A stretch of 64,000 bases of DNA from Syntrophales bacterium. GTDB lineage: Bacteria > Desulfobacterota > Syntrophia > Syntrophales > PHBD01. Made by a program: the position numbers and the translations under genes. The notes beneath the pieces are model-generated. The model was given only the letters and a program-made list of their open reading frames with translations, was not told the origin of the DNA and searched no databases. Shown here in pieces: positions 24,952 through 46,595 of the stretch (the first letter of the stretch is position 1; each line of letters opens with the position of its first letter). The stretch is from assembly GCA_963668175.1 (NCBI GenBank), contig OY764159.1:2016001-2080000 (forward strand), given 5' to 3'.

Positions 24952-25237
24952 AGCGCCGCTCCGCGCGACCAGGGAGGATATCCCCATAGCGGCCCGAAAT
25001 AGTCAAAAATAACCCCCCTTTTTTTCATTGTTTTTCCCGGAGCCCGTTCAAGCAACCTCTCAACAGGTCCCACTGTTTTCGTCAAAATATTATATTGAAA
25101 ATATGCCTATGTGATGGCATAGTGTACCTACATTATCTACAAGTATACATCGCATGGCTCTTCGGTGCATTGCCTGTGTTTCCAAACCTCACGGACTGCT
25201 GCGCGGGATATTCGCGTCATATGGAGGACAAGACTTT

Positions 25238-26191
25238 ATGGATGGAGAGACGAAGTCGCCTTTTTTTGAACGAGCCCAATCCGGAGGCGCAATCCTCGTG
25301 CACGCGTTCAAAGTTCTCGACACATATCCCGTTCTGTTCATGCCGATTTTCATATGCTGGATATTTGTGGCGGCAGGAATCCTTTATTTCAACTATGTCT
25401 TCGATTGGGACGCCTGCTCCGCATCCGAGACATTTCTTACGGCGTTTCTCATCATCATGGGGTTTACACTCATTTACTCCATGGCCGCGCTTATGCTGCT
25501 CGAACTTCTGGAGCAGTTGGAAAGGGGCCGTAAATTCAGCATTATCGCCGCCGTCCGTGAAACATTTATGAAAGACCTGCCGAAAGCCCTGCCCGTCATC
25601 GTAACTTGGGCTTTCATCGATTTCTGCCTGACGGTCCTGGATGTCTTTTCAAGGGACTCAAAGAAAGGCGGCAATCTCGGTGACGAGTTTACTGCGGAAA
25701 ACGCGGCAAAAACACTGGCCGGTTACGAAAACACATCCATATTCGACCTGGGCATCGAGGCGCTGGAAAAAGGCATCAGAATGATATCCTTTCTCATATT
25801 CCCGGCGATCGCCTGGGAGGACCTGTCGACGGTCGCCGCCGTCAAAAAAGCCTTTGTGATTCTCCGGGTCCATACGACCGAGTTCGTCTCCGGATATCTG
25901 ACGACCTGGGCGGCGTCGGCCATCATTTTTCTTCCGCCCGGATTGCTGTTTTACATCACCGATAAAATGGGCGCGACATTGCCCGATAGGGTATGGGTTG
26001 CCACGATCATTTATTGCGGCGTCGGATGGAGTTTCTACCTATACCTGGAGCAGATGTTCGCCGGGCTTCTCTACCTCTGGAATAAGAAATGGGAGCAGGA
26101 GCTCGGTTACGCGGAAGAAAGCGGGGCGTCTTTGAGCCTGCGCGATGTCAGGCAGCCTTCGTTCCTCGATGGCATCGCCGACTTGAATTAA
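25238..26191 (+). CDS. Multi-pass membrane protein of unknown function
   Basis: Several hydrophobic helices; RBS GGAGG before ATG 25238; lower GC than flanks. Confidence 0.7.
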   Translation: MDGETKSPFFERAQSGGAILVHAFKVLDTYPVLFMPIFICWIFVAAGILYFNYVFDWDACSASETFLTAFLIIMGFTLIYSMAALMLLELLEQLERGRKFSIIAAVRETFMKDLPKALPVIVTWAFIDFCLTVLDVFSRDSKKGGNLGDEFTAENAAKTLAGYENTSIFDLGIEALEKGIRMISFLIFPAIAWEDLSTVAAVKKAFVILRVHTTEFVSGYLTTWAASAIIFLPPGLLFYITDKMGATLPDRVWVATIIYCGVGWSFYLYLEQMFAGLLYLWNKKWEQELGYAEESGASLSLRDVRQPSFLDGIADLN

Positions 26192-29461: not shown

Positions 29462-30094
29462 ATGACCAATCGCCGAAGTATCGATATATCCTTAAGAAAG
29501 CAGCCGAAGCAGGCCCGCTCGACGGACCTCGTCGCCGTCATTCTGGAGGCGGCTGTTCAGGTTTTGACTAGGGAGGGGGCGCAGCGTTTCACCACGGCGC
29601 GGGTGGCGGAGAAGGCCGGGGTCAGCGTCGGGTCGCTCTATCAGTATTTTCCGAACAAAGCGGCGATCCTGTTCCGGCTTCAGAGCGACGAATGGCGGCG
29701 GACGACGGAGTTGCTGCGCGGCATCCTGGAAGACGCCCGGAGGCCGCCGCTGGCGCGGCTGCGCACCCTGGTCCGCGCCTTCGTCCGCTCGGAATGCGAG
29801 GAGGCCGGGATGCGCGTGGCCCTCAACGACGCTGCGCCGCTCTATCGCGACGCGCCCGAGGCGCAGGAGGCGAGGGCGGCGGGGGACCGCACGGTCCGGC
29901 TGTTCATGCGGGAGGTGCTGCCCCATGCCCCGGAGGCGACGCGGGTGCTGGCGGCCGACCTGATCACGACGACCCTCGGCACGGTGGGGAAGCAATTCTC
30001 GGCCAGCCCCCGGACCAGCGCGGAGATCGACACGTATGCCGACGCCATGGCCGACATGTTCTCTGCCTATCTGGAAAGCCTCGAACGCGGCTGA
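29462..30094 (+). CDS. TetR/AcrR family regulator, divergent from the O-methyltransferase
   Basis: RKQPKQARS, TTARVAEKAGVSVGSLYQYFPNK. Confidence 0.93.
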   Translation: MTNRRSIDISLRKQPKQARSTDLVAVILEAAVQVLTREGAQRFTTARVAEKAGVSVGSLYQYFPNKAAILFRLQSDEWRRTTELLRGILEDARRPPLARLRTLVRAFVRSECEEAGMRVALNDAAPLYRDAPEAQEARAAGDRTVRLFMREVLPHAPEATRVLAADLITTTLGTVGKQFSASPRTSAEIDTYADAMADMFSAYLESLERG

Positions 30095-30294
30095 GACGGC
30101 CGCCGGGGCGGGTTGGGAATATCGTGTTTCGGGGAGTGATGTGCGGCGAGGCCGTGCGGATTCCGGGGGAGCTTCTGGAAAGATGACGGCCTCCCTAAAA
30201 AAGGGGAATGAATAGGTTCCTGTTCCGCGCATTCACCACTGGTATTTTACGGCATGTCAAACGGCAACATTCGCCAATCAATTATTAAAAACAC

Positions 30295-30323
30295 TTGACT
30301 GAACTAATCCATTGGATTACAGT
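30295..30323 (+). promoter_or_regulatory. TA operon promoter with palindromic operator
   Basis: TTGACT, 17 nt, TACAGT; palindrome TAATCCA-T-TGGATTA (30305-30319) lying in the spacer and touching the -10. Confidence 0.7.
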
Positions 30324-30329
30324 ATCTCC

Positions 30330-30671
30330 GTGATAACCGTTGCGGAAACGACCGAATTTGCGAGGCGGGCCGGAAAACTCTTATCCGAGGATGAGCGAAA
30401 CGAACTGATTTATTTCCTTGCCTTGCACCCCAAATCCGGCACCGTCATGGAAGGCACGGGCGGCATCCGCAAGCTGCGCTGGGCCAGGGAAGGCAAGGGA
30501 AAGAGCGGCGGCGTCCGTGTCATTTACTTTTTTTACAGCGAGAAAATGCCGCTTTACCTTCTCACCGTCTATGGGAAAAACGAGAAGGACGACCTTTCCG
30601 CGAGCGAGCGCAGGGAATTGGCGAGACTGGCCCGAATGCTCGTCCGGTCCGCGACGAAAGATAGAACATGA
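30330..30671 (+). CDS. higB: RelE/HigB-family toxin
   Basis: GTGGIRKLRW..GKGKSGGVRVIYF, LLTVYGKNEKDDLS; toxin-first gene order. Confidence 0.88.
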   Translation: MITVAETTEFARRAGKLLSEDERNELIYFLALHPKSGTVMEGTGGIRKLRWAREGKGKSGGVRVIYFFYSEKMPLYLLTVYGKNEKDDLSASERRELARLARMLVRSATKDRT

Positions 30672-30681
30672 GGAAAACGAC

Positions 30682-30984
30682 ATGAGCGATATCTTCGAGA
30701 GTATTAAAAAAGGGATGGCCGAAGCCATCGACCACCGGAAAGGAAAAAAGACGGGGATCAAGGTTTACCGGCCTGCCCCGGTCGATGTCAAGAAGGTGCG
30801 GGAAAAAACGGGGTTGACGCAGGAGAAATTCGCCGCGACATTCGGCATCAGCGTTGCCACCTTGCGCCACTGGGAACGGGGCGACCGCGTACCGCAAGGC
30901 CCGGCGCTCGTCCTGCTGAACGCCATCGGGAAAGAACCGGCCACCGTCCTGCGGATATTGGGAAGCAGGAAAAAAGCGGCGTGA
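30682..30984 (+). CDS. higA: HigA-like HTH (Xre) antitoxin
   Basis: DVKKVREKTGLTQEKFAATFGISVATLRHWERGDRVPQGPA. Confidence 0.88.
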   Translation: MSDIFESIKKGMAEAIDHRKGKKTGIKVYRPAPVDVKKVREKTGLTQEKFAATFGISVATLRHWERGDRVPQGPALVLLNAIGKEPATVLRILGSRKKAA

Positions 30985-31090
30985 AAATTTAAAAGCAGGA
31001 AAACAGGCAATCTGAATCTGGTCTGTCAGGATTGCCTCAAATGAATGCCGTTGCTGTACACTCTAATTAAGTATGCTGTCCCCCGAACTC

Positions 31091-31508
31091 TATCAAGGTC
31101 GAAAACATCCTCACGGACAACGGCCGGGAGTATTGCGGCCGGGCCATGATCCATCCTTATGAGATATTCCTGGAATTGAATGACGTCGAGCACCGCCGGA
31201 CGAAAGTGGCAAGACCAAGGACCAACGGATTCGTGGAGAGATTCAACAAGACCGTTCTCGATGAGTTCTTTTGCGAGACCTTCCGGGAAAGGCTGTATAC
31301 CTCCGTTGATGAGCTCCAAGAGGATCTCGATCAGTGGCTCCATCATTACAATTATGAAAGACCCCATCGGGGTTACCGCAACATGGGCAGGCGCCCCATT
31401 GAAACATTAGAAGCAGGGAAAACTGTCAAAAAGCAGATGTTGAAAACAGCAGCTTAAATATCGTTACCGGAGAGAAGAAAACTGTCCGGGAAGTGCTTGC
31501 GCTTTGCA
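31091..31508 (+). mobile_element. IS481-family remnant: truncated transposase (integrase core C-terminus, stop at 31457) with degenerate right end
   Basis: In-frame ILTDNGREYCG..PRTNGFVERFNKT..YNYERPHRG; in-frame TAA at 31068 and no N-terminal half; AACTGTC..TGCA terminal-like sequence. Confidence 0.85.
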
Positions 31509-31522
31509 GATCAATTAATAAA

Positions 31523-32185
31523 TCATTCATCATCAATGTAATGGCAAAAGTTATCAATATCTTCAATGATTGATAGAGTGACTGTCTCAATACCCCTGAT
31601 AGTATTGTTTATAGCGATATCACTACTCGGCTTTCCATAAAGCCCACCCAACAAACGTAATGATGCAAGTATGAACGTCAATGGACTTTTGTTTTTTCTT
31701 GAATGAGCAATAAAATAACTCCGATTGTCGCAAATGAATTTCTTGTAACTATCGGGGAAATACTTTCTATATAGGTTTGGATCTTTCTGCAATTCTTTCG
31801 AAATTCTTATGTCATTCCAAATAATAACGTTTATATCTTGGCAGCTATCCTTGATAGAATTAAGAGTCTTTTCTAGATTAACGCTCAAACGAGCGTTCGT
31901 AAATAAGAAGTATCCATTTGCTTTTTGAGATCTAACCCGGTCAGTAACATTGAAAATATCCTTTTCAGTTATTGTCCTGCCGGATTTAGTAAATTTTACT
32001 TCTACCATCCAGATTTTTCTTTGATCGGAGAGAGAGCCTACAACAGATTCTTCAACCAGAATATCTTTACCCAACTGCCCTGGCCCGCGACCCAGTCTAC
32101 GTACCTGTAAACCTTTACTGGAAAGCAATTCTTCGCACAGATCTTCGAACTTTTCATAGTCGGCGAGTTCGGAAAAATTAATCAT
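31523..32185 (-). CDS. Mrr-like PD-(D/E)xK restriction endonuclease domain with helical C-terminal extension
   Basis: FEDLCEELL..KG, GRGPGQLGKDI, WMVEVK, ANGYFLFTN, IIWND; AT-rich. Confidence 0.78.
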   Translation of the reverse strand: MINFSELADYEKFEDLCEELLSSKGLQVRRLGRGPGQLGKDILVEESVVGSLSDQRKIWMVEVKFTKSGRTITEKDIFNVTDRVRSQKANGYFLFTNARLSVNLEKTLNSIKDSCQDINVIIWNDIRISKELQKDPNLYRKYFPDSYKKFICDNRSYFIAHSRKNKSPLTFILASLRLLGGLYGKPSSDIAINNTIRGIETVTLSIIEDIDNFCHYIDDE

Positions 32186-32586
32186 AATTTCTTTCTTCTT
32201 TTAACATCCGACATTTTATCGACTAGTTGCCAAGGGTTCACATCCTTTTTTTCATATATAAAATGATTAGCGTGGCTGATTTCAGGAAGTGAACGAGTAT
32301 CGGTATTCGTAAGACATATAACGGGGATTCTCTCATCTAAACCTCTCATTTTTTCTAAAAAACGCAGTCCTGTGCGCAATCCTTCTTTCGTATCCTGGTC
32401 TTCAAACAGTCGTCCTGGAGGCATCATGATATCGAGGATCACAGCATCCACATCTTCAAGGTTTTCAACAATAGTCGCCCATGCTGCGTCGACGTTCGAA
32501 ATTACATTGACTTGAAACCCAGAAAAACGAAATGCCTCAGTGAAAGGAGTAATATATTCCGGTTCATCGTCTATGAAAATTATCAT
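32182..32586 (-). CDS. Stand-alone response regulator receiver
   Basis: IFIDDE, VILDIMMP, PVICLTN, conserved K; RBS GGAGG; stop overlaps the nuclease start (ATGA). Confidence 0.88.
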   Translation of the reverse strand: MIIFIDDEPEYITPFTEAFRFSGFQVNVISNVDAAWATIVENLEDVDAVILDIMMPPGRLFEDQDTKEGLRTGLRFLEKMRGLDERIPVICLTNTDTRSLPEISHANHFIYEKKDVNPWQLVDKMSDVKRRKKL

Positions 32587-33838
32587 ATTGCTGCCTCCGG
32601 ATGACTTGACTTTTTCCAATAGTTATTGCGAATTCAGTCGGATTAACCAGACTTGTGATTTCAATTTTCGCATCATGGACGGAAAGAAGATTTCTGACTG
32701 TTGTTAGACCAATACCGGTTCCTGCTGTGACCTTCAGTTTGGCTTGCTTACCTCTGAATGTTGGTTCAAAAATACGTTCCATCTCTTCTTTCTCAATACC
32801 TATTCCATAGTCTTGTATTAAAATACCAATATCTCCGGAAGGCAAGAATTCGACTTCAATATTGATTTGAAAAGCATCAGGATCATCATGGGCATACTTG
32901 ATGGAATTGCCTAACATGTTGTTAAATATTTGACGGAATATTTTTCTGTCGATATTTAAGAGAGGCCAAGAGCCCCTATTTATGCATCTAATATTTGCTT
33001 GTTCAAATTTCCTTGAAGCAAGAAACGGCATCAGGCTGCCACGACATTTCGCAATCACATCTTTATAAAGATGACTTGGTTGTAAAACGAGATCCCTTTT
33101 AACCATCCGCCCAGATTTCGTATACATCGTCAATCCTTGAATAAGCGAAATAGCTTGCTCGCCGAATTTGATAACGTCATCGACACTACCAATCAAAGAT
33201 TCCCTAATGTCACGATCTGCAATAAAAGTTCCTTTTTGTACTATTCGTTGCATGAAGAATCCCGAATTCTTCATGCCCGATACAGGCGCGAGTAGTTCGT
33301 GCGTTACACTGTCTAAAAATGCTTCAAATCTTGTACGAAGCGTTGCTATAGTTATCAAAGATCCGATAGCATTACTAATAGATTCTGCTACTTGCACATC
33401 ATCATTATTGAATTCTATTATTTTGCCCAGTTTATTAAGTTTGTTTATTAGTCGTAATACGGCAATTTTATTATTTTTATCATCTAATATTGGATTTGCG
33501 ATAATTGATTTTGGTCGTTCAATATCTTCGAAAAATGTATCAGATGTCAATAATACTGACTTAAGGTTTTTTTCAGTTAGTAGTGTGGGAGTATCTGAAT
33601 TGAACATTTGCCAAATTGCTACTTCCTGGCCTAAGGGGGGAATCTCAATAGCGTTCTTAATGTTGGTACCTTGCAGATATTTGAGATTGCCTGCATACTC
33701 ATCATATAAGAAGACAGAGCATGCTTGGCATGGCAGGATAGATTTGAGGTGGTTTAGTGTAAACCTTATCTTGTCTTTTAAAGAATAGTCTTTCTTATAA
33801 AGTTCTAAGACAATCTTATTTTGGACATCTCCTATCAC
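32564..33838 (-). CDS. Cytoplasmic GAF-domain histidine kinase
   Basis: GAF (CSVFLYD, VLRLINK..FNNDD), H-box THELLAP, N-box NMLGNSIKY, DYGIGI, GTGIGL; no TM; GTG start after AGGAG (ORF open to 33874). Confidence 0.9.
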   Translation of the reverse strand: MIGDVQNKIVLELYKKDYSLKDKIRFTLNHLKSILPCQACSVFLYDEYAGNLKYLQGTNIKNAIEIPPLGQEVAIWQMFNSDTPTLLTEKNLKSVLLTSDTFFEDIERPKSIIANPILDDKNNKIAVLRLINKLNKLGKIIEFNNDDVQVAESISNAIGSLITIATLRTRFEAFLDSVTHELLAPVSGMKNSGFFMQRIVQKGTFIADRDIRESLIGSVDDVIKFGEQAISLIQGLTMYTKSGRMVKRDLVLQPSHLYKDVIAKCRGSLMPFLASRKFEQANIRCINRGSWPLLNIDRKIFRQIFNNMLGNSIKYAHDDPDAFQINIEVEFLPSGDIGILIQDYGIGIEKEEMERIFEPTFRGKQAKLKVTAGTGIGLTTVRNLLSVHDAKIEITSLVNPTEFAITIGKSQVIRRQQYDNFHRR

Positions 33839-34008
33839 GCAACTTCTCCTAATAATCATTAAGATCGGATGCATCTAACAGATATCATAAAATATGCTAT
33901 AAATTATCAGATTTTATATAATAAATCAACTATTAATTTCATCAATTTCGGTAGATCGGGTTCTTCTTATTGCATTCACCTTCAGAAGAAATCCGGTTCA
34001 TTTTCACC

Positions 34009-34045
34009 TTGACATCCCCGCCTAATCATTGGTACAAATACCAAT
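34009..34045 (+). promoter_or_regulatory. arsR promoter with inverted-repeat operator
   Basis: TTGACA at 34009-34014; perfect IR ATTGGTA-caaa-TACCAAT (34028-34045) over the -10 region. Confidence 0.65.
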
Positions 34046-34067
34046 AAGCCAACAGAAGGAGTACAGT

Positions 34068-34385
34068 TTGATCACTTTTGCCGAGGCGGAGATCAGGACG
34101 AAGATCATCAAGGCGCTGGCGCATCCGGCGCGGCTTATGATCGTCGAACTGCTGAAAGAAGGGGAGGCCCCCTTCGGGAAGATCCACGGCCTGTTTACGT
34201 CCGACAAGTCCACCGTATCGAAGCATCTCCTCGTGCTAAAGGAGGCGGGCATCGTCTCGTCGCGCAAAAGCGGCCTCGACATGTTCTACAAGCTCGAAGT
34301 CCCCTGCATCACGGAATTCTTCGGCTGCGTCACCGCCGTCATCGAAAACAACGTGGAAAAGCAGCAGTGCTGCCTGCGCAAATAG
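34068..34385 (+). CDS. arsR: ArsR/SmtB family metalloregulator
   Basis: KALAHPARLMIVELL, STVSKHLLVLKEAGIV, C-terminal PC..FFGC..CC; TTG start after AAGGAG. Confidence 0.9.
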   Translation: MITFAEAEIRTKIIKALAHPARLMIVELLKEGEAPFGKIHGLFTSDKSTVSKHLLVLKEAGIVSSRKSGLDMFYKLEVPCITEFFGCVTAVIENNVEKQQCCLRK

Positions 34386-34414
34386 CTGTATGCGCATATA
34401 TTTTTTACGTAACA

Positions 34415-34432
34415 GTTGGCCGGTTTGCCAAC
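34415..34432. promoter_or_regulatory. Second candidate ArsR operator upstream of the permease
   Basis: GTTGGC-N6-GCCAAC, same geometry as 34028-34045; both followed by ARGCCA. Confidence 0.55.
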
Positions 34433-34459
34433 AGGCCATTTCAGTGAGGTGAATTTTCA

Positions 34460-35407
34460 ATGTTAAAGAGTGCCGCCGATTATCTCGTCTTCAACCTGAT
34501 GGGTTTCCAGCCGGGGACCCACAGCGGGGAAGCCGTCAACTTCTTCGTCTACGACACGGCCAAGGTCTTTCTCCTGCTCATCGTCATTATTTTTGCCGTG
34601 GCGGTCATCCGCAGCTTCTTCCCGCCGGAGCGGGCGAGGAAGCTCCTGAGCCATAAGCGGGAGTATGTGGGCAACACCCTTGCGGCGCTCCTCGGCATCG
34701 TCACGCCCTTCTGCTCGTGCTCCGCCGTGCCGATGTTCATCGGCTTCATCGAAGCCGGCCTGCCGCTCGGCGTCACCTTCTCCTTCCTCATCTCGTCGCC
34801 CGCCGTGAACGAGGTCGCCCTGATCATGCTCTGGGGGCTCTTCGGCTGGAAGGTCGCCCTCATCTACACGGCCACGGGCGTCATCATCGCCATCATCGCG
34901 GGGATCGTGATCGGGAAGCTGAACCTGGAAAACCAGGTGGAGGACTACGTCTACGAGATCAGGATGGGCGAGGCCGTCGTCATCGTGCCGACGTGGAAGG
35001 AGCGGCTGACCTATGCGCGGGACTACACGAAGGACATCCTGAAGCGCGTGTGGCTCTTCGTGCTCCTCGGCATCGGCCTGGGCGGCCTGATCCACGGCTA
35101 CGTGCCGATTGATTTCGTCGTCAAGTACGCCGGGCCGGACAACCCCTTCGCCGTCATCGTCGCGGTCATCCTCGGGGTGCCGCTTTACTCCAACGCCGCC
35201 GGGACCATTCCCATCGTCCAGGCGCTCGTCGGCAAGGGACTGCCCATGGGCACGGCGCTGGCCTTCATGATGGCGATCGTCGCCATCTCGCCGCCTGAGA
35301 TGATCATCCTGCGCAAGGTGATCAAGCCCAAGCTCATCGCCATTTTTGCCGGGGTCGTGTCGGCGGCCATCGTCGTCGTCGGCTACCTCTTCAACGCCAT
35401 TTTATAG
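34460..35407 (+). CDS. ArsP/DUF318-family permease
   Basis: TPFCSCSAVP, FSFLISSP, GVPLYSN, ISPPEMIIL; multiple TMs. Confidence 0.88.
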   Translation: MLKSAADYLVFNLMGFQPGTHSGEAVNFFVYDTAKVFLLLIVIIFAVAVIRSFFPPERARKLLSHKREYVGNTLAALLGIVTPFCSCSAVPMFIGFIEAGLPLGVTFSFLISSPAVNEVALIMLWGLFGWKVALIYTATGVIIAIIAGIVIGKLNLENQVEDYVYEIRMGEAVVIVPTWKERLTYARDYTKDILKRVWLFVLLGIGLGGLIHGYVPIDFVVKYAGPDNPFAVIVAVILGVPLYSNAAGTIPIVQALVGKGLPMGTALAFMMAIVAISPPEMIILRKVIKPKLIAIFAGVVSAAIVVVGYLFNAIL

Positions 35408-35416
35408 AAGGGAGTT

Positions 35417-35650
35417 ATGAAAATGAAGATTCAGATCCTGGGGCCGGGCTGCGCCAACTGCGAGAAGCTCGCCAAGAACGCCGCCGAGGCCTGCAAGGCC
35501 AGGGGGCTCGAGTGCGAGATCGTGAAAGTCACGGACATGAAGGATATCCTGAGTATGGGCGTCATGCAGACGCCGGGCCTCGCCGTGGACGGGAAGGTGA
35601 AGAGCGTGGGCAGGGTGCTGTCGGCGGCGGACATCGAGAAACTCCTCTAA
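35417..35650 (+). CDS. Small redox-active disulfide protein (MTH895-like thioredoxin)
   Basis: IQILGPGCANC, GVMQTPGLAVDG. Confidence 0.9.
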   Translation: MKMKIQILGPGCANCEKLAKNAAEACKARGLECEIVKVTDMKDILSMGVMQTPGLAVDGKVKSVGRVLSAADIEKLL

Positions 35651-35846
35651 GAGGCAGTTGAAAAACGCCCATCTGCCGTGTTGTTTATCACCTTCAGGTG
35701 ACGCTTCGTCCCTCGGATGCTCACGTACCCTTATGTACGCTCCGCTCCTCGGCCCTCGCGCGCCTTGCAGCTGGACGTTTTTGAGCACCCCCTATACAGG
35801 GGGCATGGCCTGCGCAACATCGCGTTTTTTGACAAGCGGACATTAA
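35648..35846. repeat. MITE/REP-like element, copy 1
   Basis: Shares 46/48 and 40/43 nt blocks with 48639-48874; ends GTTGAAAAA...TTTTTGAC; internal hairpins. Confidence 0.8.
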
Positions 35847-35928
35847 ACAACCATTCGGCAGCGGACGGATGAATGCCCGGCCGCAGGCCGAGAGTCGAAC
35901 CATCTTCTTTTAAAGGGGGAAAAGGATT

Positions 35929-36303
35929 ATGTCGGAACAAAAAGCAACATGCTGCAGCGGAGAAGTCAAGACGCTGGTCCTGGCCTGTTCGGGCGGATCG
36001 AACGTGGGGCAGGTATCGAACAACGTCATGGTGGAACTGGACAAGAAGGGGCTGGGGAGCGGCTTCTGCCTGATCGGCCTGGGGGCGGACCTTTCGGGCT
36101 TCGTCGAAAGCTCGAAGGCGGCAAGGACGATCCTGATCGACGGCTGCACGGTGGCCTGCGGCAAGAAGGTCTTTGCCAAGCACGGCATCGAACCGTCGCA
36201 CTATTTTGTCGTGACCGATTTCGGCATCGAGAAGAAGCACGCCTTCGACACCCTCGCCGAAGAGACGGACCGGGCGCTGGGCAGAATCGTCCCGCAAATC
36301 TGA
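35929..36303 (+). CDS. DGC-domain putative zinc-binding protein
   Basis: [23 protein letters not shown]-terminal CC. Confidence 0.88.
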
Positions 36304-36401
36304 CGGCAGACAGGGACGCGGTCTTATTACCCGACGGCGCGACGTATCCATGCGGACGACGCCATCGTACAGTCGCATCCTGCACAGGAGAATCAATCAT
36401 T

Positions 36402-37493
36402 ATGGTACAGACAACGGTAAAACGCCTCGGTTTTCTCGATCGCTTTCTCACGCTCTGGATTTTTGCCGCGATGCTGATCGGCGTCCTCTGGGGTTACTTC
36501 TATCCAGGCATCCGGGAGACGATCAACGCCTTCCAGGCGGGCACCACCAACATCCCCATCGCCATCGGCCTGATCCTCATGATGTATCCGCCGCTCGCGC
36601 GCGTCCGTTACGAAGAGCTGGGCAAGGTCTTCCGCAATATCCGGATTCTCGGCCTTTCGCTGGTCCTCAACTGGATCGTGGGGCCGGTGCTGATGTTCGT
36701 GCTCGCCGTCGTCTTCCTGTCCGCGCACCAGGAATACATGGTGGGATTGATCCTGGTCGGCCTCGCCCGGTGCATCGCCATGGTCATCGTCTGGAACGAA
36801 CTGGCCGAAGGGAACAGGGAATACTGCGCGGGGCTCGTCGCCTTCAACGCCATCTTCCAGATGCTCCTCTATGCGGTCTACGCCTATTTCTTCATTACCG
36901 TACTGCCGGGATGGCTGGGCCTCAAGGGCATGACGGTGAATGTCGCCATGACCGATGTCGTGAAGACGGTCCTCGTCTATCTCGGCATCCCTTTCTTCGC
37001 CGGCATGCTGTCCCGGTATTTCCTGATCCGTTCCAAAGGAAGGGAATGGTACGAGGAGAAGTTCATCCCCCGGATCAGCCCGATTACGCTCGTGGCGCTG
37101 CTCTTCACGATCCTCGTCATGTTTTCGCTGAAGGGCGAGTACATCGTCCAGCTTCCGCTGGACGTCGTCCGGATTGCCATCCCGCTCACGATTTATTTTC
37201 TCCTGATGTTCTTCGCGACCTTTTATTTTTCCCGGAAAATCGGGGCCGACTATGCCACCGCCTCGACACTCTCCTTCACGTCGGCGTCGAACGATTTCGA
37301 ATTGGCCATCGCCGTGGCCGTCGCCGTCTTCGGCATCGATTCCAGCCAGGCCTTCGCCACGGTCATCGGCCCCCTGATGGAGGTTCCGGTGCTCATCGCC
37401 CTAGTGAATGCGGCCCTCTATTTCCGGAAAAAGTATTTTCCCTATGCCGTGGAAACCCCGGCAGGGGTCTGTTACATGAGCTGTAAGGAATGA
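36402..37493 (+). CDS. acr3: Acr3-family arsenite efflux permease
   Basis: [60 protein letters not shown]. Confidence 0.95.
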
Positions 37494-37513
37494 CGTATTA
37501 AAGGAGAGAAACC

Positions 37514-37957
37514 ATGGGTGCCGTCGAGCGGGTCCTTTTCGTCTGCGTCCACAACAGCGCCCGCAGCCAGATGGCGGAGGCCTGGATGAACCGCCTGTGC
37601 GGGGACCGGTTCCGGGCGTCGAGTGCGGGCCTTGAGCCGGGGAAGCTGAATCCCCTGGTCGTGGCTGTTATGAAGGAAACGGGGATCGACCTGTCGGGCA
37701 AGGCCACGCGGGGAATCGACGACGTCGTCGCAGCGGGCGAGACGTTCGACTATGTCGTCACCGTCTGCGACGAGGCCTCGGCGGAGCGCTGCCCCTATTT
37801 TCCGGGGCAGGGCAGGCGGCTGCACATGGGCTTCGCCGATCCGGGCGCCGTGGAAGGAACGGACGAGGAGAAGCTGCGCACGATCCGGGCGATCCGGGAT
37901 TCCATCAGGGAGGCCGTGGATGCCTTCTGCCGCTACCGCGCCCGAAGGGACGTTTGA
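37514..37957 (+). CDS. arsC: Thioredoxin-coupled (LMW-PTP type) arsenate reductase
   Basis: FVCVHNSARSQMAEA, VTVCD..ERCPYFPG, DP. Confidence 0.93.
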   Translation: MGAVERVLFVCVHNSARSQMAEAWMNRLCGDRFRASSAGLEPGKLNPLVVAVMKETGIDLSGKATRGIDDVVAAGETFDYVVTVCDEASAERCPYFPGQGRRLHMGFADPGAVEGTDEEKLRTIRAIRDSIREAVDAFCRYRARRDV

Positions 37958-45364: not shown

Positions 45365-45905
45365 GTTCTTCTCATCTCCTTTCCGTGGTTTCATTGGTCG
45401 ATGCGGCATGTCTTTCCTTGGTTCGACGCCGTCGTTCATCTTCCGCTTTGCAGTTCGGGCATAGGAAACGTATCGCTGTCTGCGATATCCCGCTTGGTTG
45501 GAATATAATAGTCTTTTACTAATAAACAGATGTGATTTCAATCACAAATAATATCAATAATATCCACACGGTATGGTTTTGGACCGGACCGAATAGATGA
45601 TGGGCGAAACGGACGGCTATTGAAGAGTACGGCTTGAAAGGCGGCATGCCGGTGACGAGACCGTTCTTGAGGATTACGGGAAGCAATCGTGCGCCATTTT
45701 AAAACAAGACCGGCGCGACCGGGACGAATTATTCCTTGTGCCTCTCGGTGCGGACCGGAGGGTCTTTTTTGATCTTGGCGGGCTCTGTCTCGGCCTCCCG
45801 CCTGTTGACGTTTTGTTCGGTCATGCGGATTCCTGTTGGATGGCATGATTTATACTGCACATGTTACCTGAGCGACGGCATCAAGAATAACGTACCCCCC
45901 CCTTT

Positions 45906-46595
45906 CTATCGTTTCTCCATCCTGCGGTAAAAATTTGAGTCAAAGTCTATCTCTTTCGCACAGTTTTTATTCAAGCCGGCTAGAAAGTCCACGCTGAAGC
46001 CCATACCCATGGAATAATAGTTATAATATTTTCTATAGCTGTCCTTATATGTTACGATCCTGTCCTCTTTTCCGAAAATGTCCCTTAACAATTCCGGCGT
46101 GATACAAAATTTGTCGTAATCGAGAGAGAGATGGCGTATGCCTGTCTGAGATCTTTCTCCAGACACCCATCGATAGTTCGGATTCCGATTTTCTTTCTTA
46201 ACGTAGAGCACCCCATTGATTTCTTCGTATCTTTGTTCGATCGCCAAGCCCCGCGCCACATCCTCTACAAACGTCTGGAATGTGAATTTTTCACTTGCCC
46301 GTTCTCTCACTTTTTTATACTTTTTCAGAAACTCCTCGGGAGACTTTTCCGGTGTCATGCTTTTGCTTCTTAGCACTTTCACGTCTTCGCCCTTGGCCCT
46401 TAATTGTCGGACATGTTCCTGCCACTTTTCACTCGTTGTTTGTTCAGTCTTTCCTTCTCCCACTCCCAAAATCATAAACATCGCGACCATCAGCAGCGCC
46501 AGTAACATTCTCCCGGCTTTCGCTGCCGAAAACGGCGCGGACGATCCGGCCGCGTTCGCCTGAGAAAAAGGTTTTGTGCAATGGGATTTCGACAT
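45906..46595 (-). CDS. AT-rich exported hypothetical protein
   Basis: 229-aa ORF with hydrophobic N-terminal segment and RBS GGGGG; AT-rich body. Confidence 0.6.
   Translation of the reverse strand: MSKSHCTKPFSQANAAGSSAPFSAAKAGRMLLALLMVAMFMILGVGEGKTEQTTSEKWQEHVRQLRAKGEDVKVLRSKSMTPEKSPEEFLKKYKKVRERASEKFTFQTFVEDVARGLAIEQRYEEINGVLYVKKENRNPNYRWVSGERSQTGIRHLSLDYDKFCITPELLRDIFGKEDRIVTYKDSYRKYYNYYSMGMGFSVDFLAGLNKNCAKEIDFDSNFYRRMEKR

Follow-up and report, generated by a model that had tools for sequence, protein, structure and literature searches.

What does a lone response-regulator receiver, with no output domain of its own, act on? The question is raised by a three-gene operon in a Syntrophales bacterium (GTDB lineage Bacteria; Desulfobacterota; Syntrophia; Syntrophales; PHBD01). 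The operon lies within a 64,000-nucleotide stretch of assembly GCA_963668175.1 (contig OY764159.1, positions 2,016,001 to 2,080,000), which we call the window and number from its first letter. It encodes a cytoplasmic histidine kinase, a stand-alone receiver and a small Mrr-type PD-(D/E)xK nuclease. Here, we report that the nuclease appears to end in a helical hairpin resembling the DHp domain of histidine kinases but lacking the phospho-acceptor histidine. We read the operon as a phosphorylation-gated nuclease, in which the receiver would dock on this decoy DHp and switch cleavage on, probably in abortive or direct defense against phages or other invading DNA, and we give this reading a probability of about 55%.

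Three translationally coupled genes

Reading the open reading frames (ORFs) of the window gave three translationally coupled minus-strand genes in the order kinase, receiver, nuclease. The kinase ORF covers 32564–33874 and has 436 residues from its first ATG at 33874; its start is likely the GTG at 33838, which has AGGAG 8 nucleotides upstream, gives 424 residues, and is the start in the window's own protein as recovered by our kinase protein search. The receiver ORF (32182–32619) likely starts at the ATG at 32586, after GGAGG, for a product of 134 residues, and the nuclease ORF (31523–32185) encodes 220 residues. The kinase stop and receiver ATG overlap by 23 nucleotides, and the receiver stop and nuclease start share an ATGA. 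All of this coupling had been described in an initial annotation made from the sequence alone, and its kinase coordinate of 33838 is the GTG start that the AGGAG supports. The features of the operon, all on the minus strand, are as follows.

32564 to 33838, minus strand: sensor histidine kinase, cytoplasmic GAF-DHp-CA (ORF, HATPase_c, AlphaFold2 model)
33419 to 33838, minus strand: GAF sensor domain, kinase residues ~1–140 (fold match, conserved motifs)
33128 to 33406, minus strand: kinase DHp hairpin, residues 145–237, with the His180 codon at 33299–33301 (invariant motif, model helices)
32609 to 33091, minus strand: kinase CA (ATP-binding) domain, residues ~250–410 (HATPase_c, conserved motifs)
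32182 to 32586, minus strand: stand-alone receiver (REC), 134 residues (Response_reg, invariant residues)
31814 to 32185, minus strand: Mrr-type PD-(D/E)xK nuclease core, residues 1–124 (Mrr_cat, Foldseek, VIA-align)
31526 to 31726, minus strand: predicted His-less DHp-like (pseudo-HisKA) hairpin, nuclease residues 154–220 (model, hhalign)
33918 to 33945, minus strand: promoter-like site upstream of the kinase gene, TTGATG-16 nucleotides-TATTAT (consensus scan)

The promoter-like site has 9 of 12 consensus matches and is weak evidence, as the region holds 14 such sites in total versus 8.3 expected.

The nuclease joins an intact catalytic core to a DHp-like hairpin

The nuclease matches Mrr_cat (PF04471) with 29.8 bits against a gathering cut-off of 21 (E 7e-7), and precomputed annotation lists the same family in 24 of its 26 family members. 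Every one of the 25 sequences covering the GKD motif has its catalytic D41, and E62 and K64 occur in all 26. The AlphaFold2 model, with a mean predicted local distance difference test score (pLDDT) of 86, consists of a core (residues 1–124) with the alpha-beta-beta-beta-alpha-beta fold, short helices (125–153) and a long antiparallel hairpin of two helices (155–179 and 189–218). A Foldseek search with the model returned the restriction endonucleases MspJI (8.7e-5) and AspBHI (7.7e-4). VIA-align gave AspBHI with a Z score of 12.0 and a root mean square deviation (rmsd) of 3.0 over 136 aligned residues, followed by AF1548 (11.8), LlaBIII (10.9), Avs4 (10.4) and MspJI (10.4). The initial annotation had called a PD-(D/E)xK nuclease from GKD..EVK; these motifs are real and their catalytic residues invariant in the family, and the fold matches bear out the assignment, which a protein without a nuclease fold would have overturned. 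Neither Pfam nor the model, which has only helices after residue 125, revealed a DNA- or modification-reading domain in the 220 residues, so that the protein lacks the reader of the Type IV (Mrr/MspJI) enzymes.

Within the hairpin, the family alignment holds a near-invariant K166-S167-P168-L169. In the H-boxes of HisKA domains, R-T-P-L follows the histidine. The conserved Ser167 falls where HisKA domains have their phosphatase Thr/Asn. We used hhalign to align the family alignment of nuclease residues 145–220 with 89 generic DHp segments, each taken from a generic kinase from His-18 to His+52. The two matched over 48 columns with a probability of 90.9, an E value of 1.2e-6 and a score of 32.3; KSPL falls on RTPL, in the register of the H-box, and the second helix is aligned too. 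Control alignments gave 8.9 with the hairpin reversed and 7.9 with the nuclease core; 200 column shuffles averaged 9.0 (standard deviation 2.0, maximum 15.9) and none reached the observed score. The DHp of the cognate kinase aligned to the tail in the same register, weakly (E 0.0074, probability 5.2).

The column equivalent to the phospho-acceptor histidine is 163, and none of the 26 sequences has a histidine there; the column holds K, R, S, A, N, Q, L, T or I. Judged from these alignments, the tail appears to be a His-less DHp-like domain, similar in profile to the HisKA type and unable to accept phosphate. It would thus be a pseudo-DHp and not a phosphotransfer domain. We also considered a phosphorelay of the Spo0F/Spo0B type through the hairpin and rejected it, as the tail has no conserved histidine. 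Among the 148 nearest nuclease representatives (see below), a hidden Markov model (HMM) of the hairpin found only P0027, a family member, and a generic DHp HMM found none at an E value of 0.01. In the ESM Atlas, the best score for residues 125–220 was 0.77 (CTD10 of ABC-3C systems), below a useful lead.

The receiver is predicted to dock on the hairpin

We modeled the complex of nuclease and receiver in three runs, each protein with its own family alignment and without phosphate. The complex score was 0.64 (runs 0.64, 0.68 and 0.64), and the best of three controls scored 0.00. Of 157 solved complexes, 116 pass the mark set for this score, as do 2 of 215 mismatched pairs. The runs share at least 93% of their contacts, with a partner pLDDT of at least 84. 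On the nuclease, the predicted interface comprises residues 162–163, 166–168, 170–182 and 188–202; on the receiver, it comprises residues 8, 10–21 (helix alpha1), 54, 94 and 113–119 (beta5-alpha5 loop). Receivers sit on real kinases with this geometry, as in HK853-RR468. Docking through helix alpha1 and the beta5-alpha5 loop is a prediction of the model, which supports binding of nuclease and receiver and falls short of showing it; likewise, we read the score as independent support, not proof, for a DHp-like tail that presents a receiver-docking surface. Because the predicted interface is the surface used on kinases, kinase and nuclease would be competitors for a single receiver face. Together, the DHp-like tail and the predicted docking give a concrete basis to the idea, first put forward in the initial annotation, that the receiver switches the nuclease.

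Receiver and kinase have the residues for phosphotransfer

The receiver matches Response_reg at 7.7e-10, with 39.4 bits against a cut-off of 30.2. Invariant in its 15 family sequences are D6, D7 and E8, D52, T93, K113 and K114, and P118 and W119. It thus has the acidic pocket, the acceptor aspartate (Asp52, codon 32431–32433) and the conserved Thr/Ser and Lys of a REC domain. Beyond the REC domain there is a basic KRRKK tail but no output domain, and transcriptional control is unlikely since there is no DNA-binding domain. The receiver's mean pairwise identity of 0.62 exceeds those of the nuclease (0.49) and the kinase (0.45), making it the best-conserved member of the triplet. Its basic C-terminus (32182–32210) contains two invariant residues, K129 and R130, neither of which is part of the predicted interface. 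Possible contacts of this tail are DNA and, in the nuclease hairpin, the acidic end, where D211 is nearly invariant.

The kinase matches HATPase_c (1.9e-16), and an AlphaFold2 model from 23 family members (pLDDT 81) shows an alpha/beta domain (residues 1–140), a long helix (145–201), a return helix (209–237) and then the CA domain. The DHp-CA part of HK853 heads its fold matches in VIA-align, with a Z score of 20 over residues 166–410, and the CA domain matches others such as ThkA (Z 17.5). The proposed phospho-acceptor His180 lies within an invariant FLDSVTHEL-APxxG, with invariant columns from F174 to E181. Across the 23 kinases, T179-H180-E181, N307/N311, D343-x-G-x-G and G373-x-G-x-G-L are invariant; these are the motifs named H-box, N, G1 and G2 in histidine kinases, and they place the protein in the HisKA/HATPase_c class.

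Pfam detected the N-terminal GAF domain below its cut-off (6.8e-4, 20.6 bits versus 22.4), and the fold confirmed it: over model residues 1–169, VIA-align matched the GAF domain of PtsP (3ci6) with a Z score of 17.8 and an rmsd of 2.4 for 151 aligned residues, followed by 3trc (Z 17.8) and PDE5A GAF (Z 16.8), and PDE5/6 GAF domains are among the matches. Conserved patterns in this domain are D-x-F-F-E, R-x-[LI]-N-K and F-x3-D-L. The pattern N-K-x9-F-x3-D is also conserved, and we take it to resemble the NKFDE signature of cyclic-nucleotide-binding GAF domains. The highest Kyte-Doolittle mean over 19 residues is 1.1, that is, the kinase has no transmembrane segment, and membrane sensing was rejected for want of a hydrophobic segment. 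A soluble GAF-HisKA-HATPase kinase and a receiver without an output domain, both anticipated in the initial annotation, are thus what fold, Pfam and hydropathy support.

The triplet is a conserved unit

We searched 5.8 billion proteins for each of the three families using a word index and found 26 nucleases, 15 receivers and 24 kinases; after the 24th kinase, the score drops from 231 to 70 bits. Six nuclease and receiver entries agree in the size of their longest contig. Scans of genome and metagenome contigs yielded seven related loci, in which gene order was determined by tblastn and domains by Pfam. At all seven, the receiver gene immediately precedes the nuclease gene, and at all five that extend far enough, the kinase gene precedes the receiver gene, with overlaps of 4 to 23 nucleotides. 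The triplet is a conserved unit, and the initial annotation, which staked its reading on such recurrence, survives this check. The family is rare, with about 25 members among billions of proteins, and occurs in low-GC uncultured lineages; its hosts include a Nitrospiraceae metagenome-assembled genome and a Thermodesulfobacteriota bacterium.

At one locus (L003, 1032–4057), an MNT/HepT toxin-antitoxin pair and a 622-residue AAA_15 ATPase lie directly upstream of the triplet, and the ATPase matches PARIS AriA (1.2e-64) and the Old/GajA models. At another (L005, 979–1923), a second Mrr_cat protein of 314 residues with a weak PDC-S02 match lies immediately downstream of the triplet nuclease. We regard the defense context as suggestive.

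PADLOC 2.0.0 returned no match for the window nuclease; three of the nuclease's relatives had weak PDC-M58A matches (best 2e-7). For the kinase, it gave PDC-M43B over the ATPase domain only, and for the receiver, a weak SduA match (6.6e-5). NCBIfam gave no match near any curated cut-off. The check for novelty with PADLOC thus found no nuclease model and only generic domain matches for the other two proteins.

The nuclease core is shared with Avs-like immune proteins

A search of 1.84 billion representative proteins with the nuclease family profile (hmmsearch, E up to 0.001) matched 1132 proteins. Among the matches listed, only P0008, P0027 and the fragment P0026 are full-length; the other 147 listed mostly cover positions 1 to ~150, and a few extend further (for example, P0036, P0043 and P0115). 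All 25 core relatives that we scanned with Pfam have Mrr_cat, and 11 of them join it to a NACHT or nSTAND NTPase, often with HEAT/TPR repeats; one is a TIR fusion, and one has a pPIWI-associated nuclease domain. On the strength of these fusions, we place the core among the N-terminal effector domains found in Avs-like immune NTPases.

A kinase ATPase domain occurs in two representatives, P0077 and P0126. P0077 (795 residues) has Mrr_cat, an nSTAND1 NTPase and a C-terminal HATPase_c, and is thus an Avs-like protein ending in a histidine-kinase ATPase. P0126 (548 residues) has an unassigned N-terminal domain (1–160), a Mrr_cat of the same clade, an H-box-like LSHQLRTT and HATPase_c, so that the nuclease occupies the place of kinase sensor domains. 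The motif YPSDYPYKPP in its N-terminal domain may reflect a likeness to E2/UBC-like domains. The histidine of P0126 aligns to column 163 of the hairpin, with low per-column confidence, and P0126 is among the proteins that the generic DHp HMM did not find.

How the receiver may control the nuclease

The reading that we prefer, in which the docked receiver switches cleavage on, builds on what sequence and computation show: the operon and its foreign composition (described below), the conserved triplet, the intact catalytic residues, the folds and the profile similarity of the tail. The GAF domain would sense an intracellular cue, perhaps an infection-linked small molecule or protein. The kinase would autophosphorylate on H180 and pass the phosphate to D52 of the receiver, which would then leave the kinase and dock on the decoy DHp of the nuclease, a partner that could not take the phosphate back. 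Through the hairpin, two nuclease copies may pair in a four-helix bundle, in the manner of DHp domains, and binding of the phosphorylated receiver would re-set the two catalytic domains for double-strand cleavage. Lacking a domain for DNA recognition, the nuclease would cut non-specifically, consistent with abortive infection. We infer the dimerization, the sign of control, the signal and the defense role; in this form, the phosphorylation-gated nuclease of the initial annotation is supported.

Several results weigh against it. The calibration of the complex score holds only roughly here because the proteins' own alignments were supplied. Pairs that look like solved complexes can pass its mark for that reason; since kinase-receiver complexes have already been solved, the pass shows likeness to DHp-REC docking and does not prove that this pair binds. 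The full-length nuclease was not significant against the kinase family profiles (probability 0.2–0.35), only the comparison cut down to the domain being informative, and Pfam on the tail alone, run on four sequences with E up to 10, found nothing relevant and no HisKA. VIA-align of the tail against 48,161 chains returned only generic helical hairpins with Z scores of ~9, among them the DHp domains of GacS and ERS1 (Z 8.6–9.0); as the hairpin matches many unrelated hairpins at this level, a structure search alone would miss the DHp likeness. For the defense role, the context rests on three neighborhoods (the window, L003 and L005), and the wider window holds housekeeping and arsenic-resistance genes and no large defense island. 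No relative was found on viral contigs, and the family was not found on plasmids, which gave only four weak matches to the nuclease core at ~30% identity.

The strongest alternative reverses the sign of control. The unphosphorylated receiver would sit on the hairpin and inhibit the nuclease, much like an antitoxin, until phosphorylation or loss of a labile receiver during infection freed it. The complex that we modeled without phosphate still scored 0.64, the ATGA overlap would co-translate receiver and nuclease as in toxin-antitoxin pairs, and the receiver is the most conserved partner, all of which would suit this arrangement. The computed evidence fits either sign of control. In 11 of the 26 nucleases, however, a Lys or Arg occupies the histidine-equivalent position facing D52, which may fit recognition of a phosphoryl group. 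Overall, we consider the inhibitory arrangement unlikely.

Alternatively, the hairpin could pair with the DHp of the kinase in a heterodimer like that of RetS-GacS, so that the conformation of the kinase would gate the nuclease directly. The receiver would then serve only as a phosphate sink against self-damage, a role proposed for DtcB in the Detocs system discussed below. DHp domains do dimerize, the hairpin aligned with the DHp of GacS in its complex with RetS (7n0e) at the generic score level (Z 9.0, rmsd 1.4, 60 aligned residues), and P0126 is a natural fusion of the nuclease clade to a DHp-CA kinase. A lone receiver has been proposed as a buffer in Detocs (bioRxiv 10.1101/2023.01.24.525353). 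Yet in the complex model it is the receiver that occupies the hairpin, in the canonical geometry, and the hairpin is only weakly similar to the DHp of its cognate kinase (probability 5.2), which makes such pairing improbable.

The operon could also be a mobile module without an immune role, degrading DNA for dormancy or death under stress or for addiction to the island, or its nuclease-like domain could be a DNA-sensing input, as the position of the nuclease domain in P0126, at the place of a kinase sensor, might suggest. The lack of a defense island in the wider neighborhood and of phage or plasmid copies in the contigs searched points the same way. On the other hand, all three catalytic residues are invariant, the core is most closely related to effector domains of Avs-like NTPases, and defense genes flank two of the few available loci, so we hold a non-immune role to be quite improbable.

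Finally, although two-component and Mrr-like genes are both common, incidental adjacency of an ordinary two-component pair to an unrelated restriction-type gene is very improbable given that order and overlapping stops and starts are kept at every locus with enough sequence, that the three families are small and of matching size, and that a receiver without an output domain adjoins a nuclease with a domain of the receiver-docking type.

Comparison with known systems

Two-component gating of a defense effector is already known from Detocs and from Shedu type 1F. Detocs is a validated defensive two-component system consisting of the DtcA kinase, the stand-alone receiver DtcB and the receiver-effector DtcC; some operons are reported with endonuclease effectors, and DtcB is proposed to be a phosphate buffer (bioRxiv 10.1101/2023.01.24.525353). 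At the level of architecture, the window operon shares with Detocs a sensor kinase and a lone receiver in one operon with a cell-damaging effector. The two differ in that DtcC carries its own receiver domain, whereas the window effector has a His-less DHp-like tail and the operon a single receiver; the sensor is TPR in Detocs and GAF here. This sets them apart by architecture, not by sequence comparison. The window nuclease gave no Response_reg match and has no receiver fold, and a receiver HMM matched none of the 148 nearest nuclease representatives. PADLOC 2.0.0 gave no Detocs-named match, with inclusion of Detocs models in that set unconfirmed.

In Shedu type 1F, a receiver-DUF4263 nuclease lies beside a histidine kinase that is thought to activate it (bioRxiv 10.1101/2023.08.10.552793). 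Both cases have a nuclease of the PD-(D/E)xK superfamily and a neighboring histidine kinase, and the window receiver has its weak SduA match. However, the receiver is fused to a DUF4263 nuclease there, whereas here the two are separate proteins and the nuclease is of the Mrr_cat family. Pfam found no DUF4263 in the window nuclease, and the SduA match is confined to the separate receiver protein.

Two-component-like genes are also joined to restriction-type nucleases in two other cassettes. Ambrosia comprises XRE, a methylase, a HATPase kinase, REC-wHTH and HNH, and its coupling is apparently transcriptional (bioRxiv 10.1101/2025.09.30.679545); HEF_HK/Response_reg_2 pairs lie beside restriction-modification systems (bioRxiv 10.1101/2020.08.26.268516). 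Unlike Ambrosia as described there, the window triplet and loci L002–L005 have no methylase, XRE or HNH gene alongside, and no match to PF19191 or PF19192 was found at E up to 0.1.

The best relatives of nuclease residues 1–150 in sequence and structure are the N-terminal nucleases of Avs/STAND proteins and the catalytic domains of MspJI/AspBHI, which have the same D...ExK core. These nucleases are controlled by a fused NTPase/sensor or a reader of DNA modification; the window nuclease has neither, and has the DHp-like tail instead.

For the tail, a counterpart exists outside immunity. DivL is said to use a DHp without an acceptor histidine to sense the phosphorylation state of a single-domain receiver, reversing the usual flow of information. 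It is reportedly a large cell-cycle pseudokinase with PAS and CA domains, no nuclease, no mobility and no immune role. DivL-DivK of Caulobacter is the closest mechanistic analogue of the nuclease tail, a His-less DHp that reads a free receiver (PMC4211667).

The combination of a kinase, a free receiver and a DHp-tailed nuclease is undescribed in the literature searched, to which Table S5 of the Detocs study, a table of effector types that might list related operons, did not belong. That the initial annotation recognized no named system is in line with this. The operon is probably a defense system of a known kind, a defensive two-component system, with a decoy-docking device for coupling that we did not find in the same literature. 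Whether it embodies a new coupling principle, in which a free phosphorylated receiver switches an effector through a decoy His-less DHp with neither a fused receiver nor a transcription step, is a claim that we advance tentatively and at somewhat less than even odds.

The operon lies on an AT-rich island

The DNA around the operon contains the following further features.

31460 to 34020, no strand assigned: AT-rich foreign island with the operon (GC, third-position GC, absence from related genomes)
31146 to 31457, plus strand: insertion sequence (IS) transposase fragment at the island edge, rve_3 integrase core, 103 residues (rve_3 4.7e-18)
30312 to 30984, plus strand: RelE-family toxin (30312–30671; PF06296 RelE 2.7e-8) and HTH_3 antitoxin (30685–30984; HTH_3 5.7e-10)

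The GC content is 0.34–0.42 over 31500–33999 (2.5 kb), 0.49 and 0.52 in the two bordering 500-nucleotide bins, and 0.56–0.70 beyond, in a genome of roughly 60–68% GC. At third codon positions, the three operon genes have a GC content of 0.32–0.36 versus 0.57–0.95 for the neighboring genes. The triplet had no match in 30 related genomes, whose matches were limited to the IS fragment, the ars genes and a short repeat. The related loci lie on contigs with a GC content of 0.31–0.41, which fits an island of low-GC origin in a high-GC genome. The window triplet is a horizontally acquired copy in a complete genome. We could not find flanking direct or inverted repeats that mark the ends of the island convincingly. 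Sequencing run X5 contains short pieces identical to the island and its flanks, probably from the same organism, and runs X1, X5 and X6 carry no independent information.

The IS fragment found no match on plasmids, and three genomes of the same order have copies of the DNA at 31097–31500 with 74–79% identity. The RelE/HTH_3 pair was not seen beside the triplet at the other loci and is therefore a neighbor outside the conserved unit. The initial annotation had placed an AT-rich block next to an IS remnant and a toxin-antitoxin pair, and composition and domain matches agree with each of these.

On the other side, an arsenic cluster adjoins the island (34029–37957) with genes for ArsR, an ArsP permease, a thioredoxin-like protein, a DGC-domain protein, an ACR3-type SBF transporter and LMWP ArsC. 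Between the thioredoxin-like and DGC-domain genes, a ~190-nucleotide intergenic segment (35650–35840) has at least eight further copies in the genome at 68–89% identity, and parts of it match several genomes of the same family or order. This repeat has no Rfam match, and its folding energy is unremarkable (z -0.96); no Rfam family was found anywhere in 30000–36500 at E up to 0.1. Two patches of lower GC content (0.45–0.52) at 25154–26191 and 45538–46595 hold ORFs without Pfam matches and may be other foreign insertions.

Significance

A large fraction of response regulators are single-domain receivers, whose targets are mostly unassigned. The operon described here is a compact case of three proteins in which the target of the receiver would be readable from sequence, as a DHp-like decoy on the effector. 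If our reading is true, phosphotransfer would reach immune effectors by a third route, in addition to the fused receiver-effectors of Detocs and Shedu type 1F and the transcriptional control of Ambrosia. Two-component signaling would here run backward onto a nuclease, and the operon would supply a small nuclease that can be switched by phosphorylation. His-less DHp tails on enzymes would then serve as a search image for the targets of orphan receivers.

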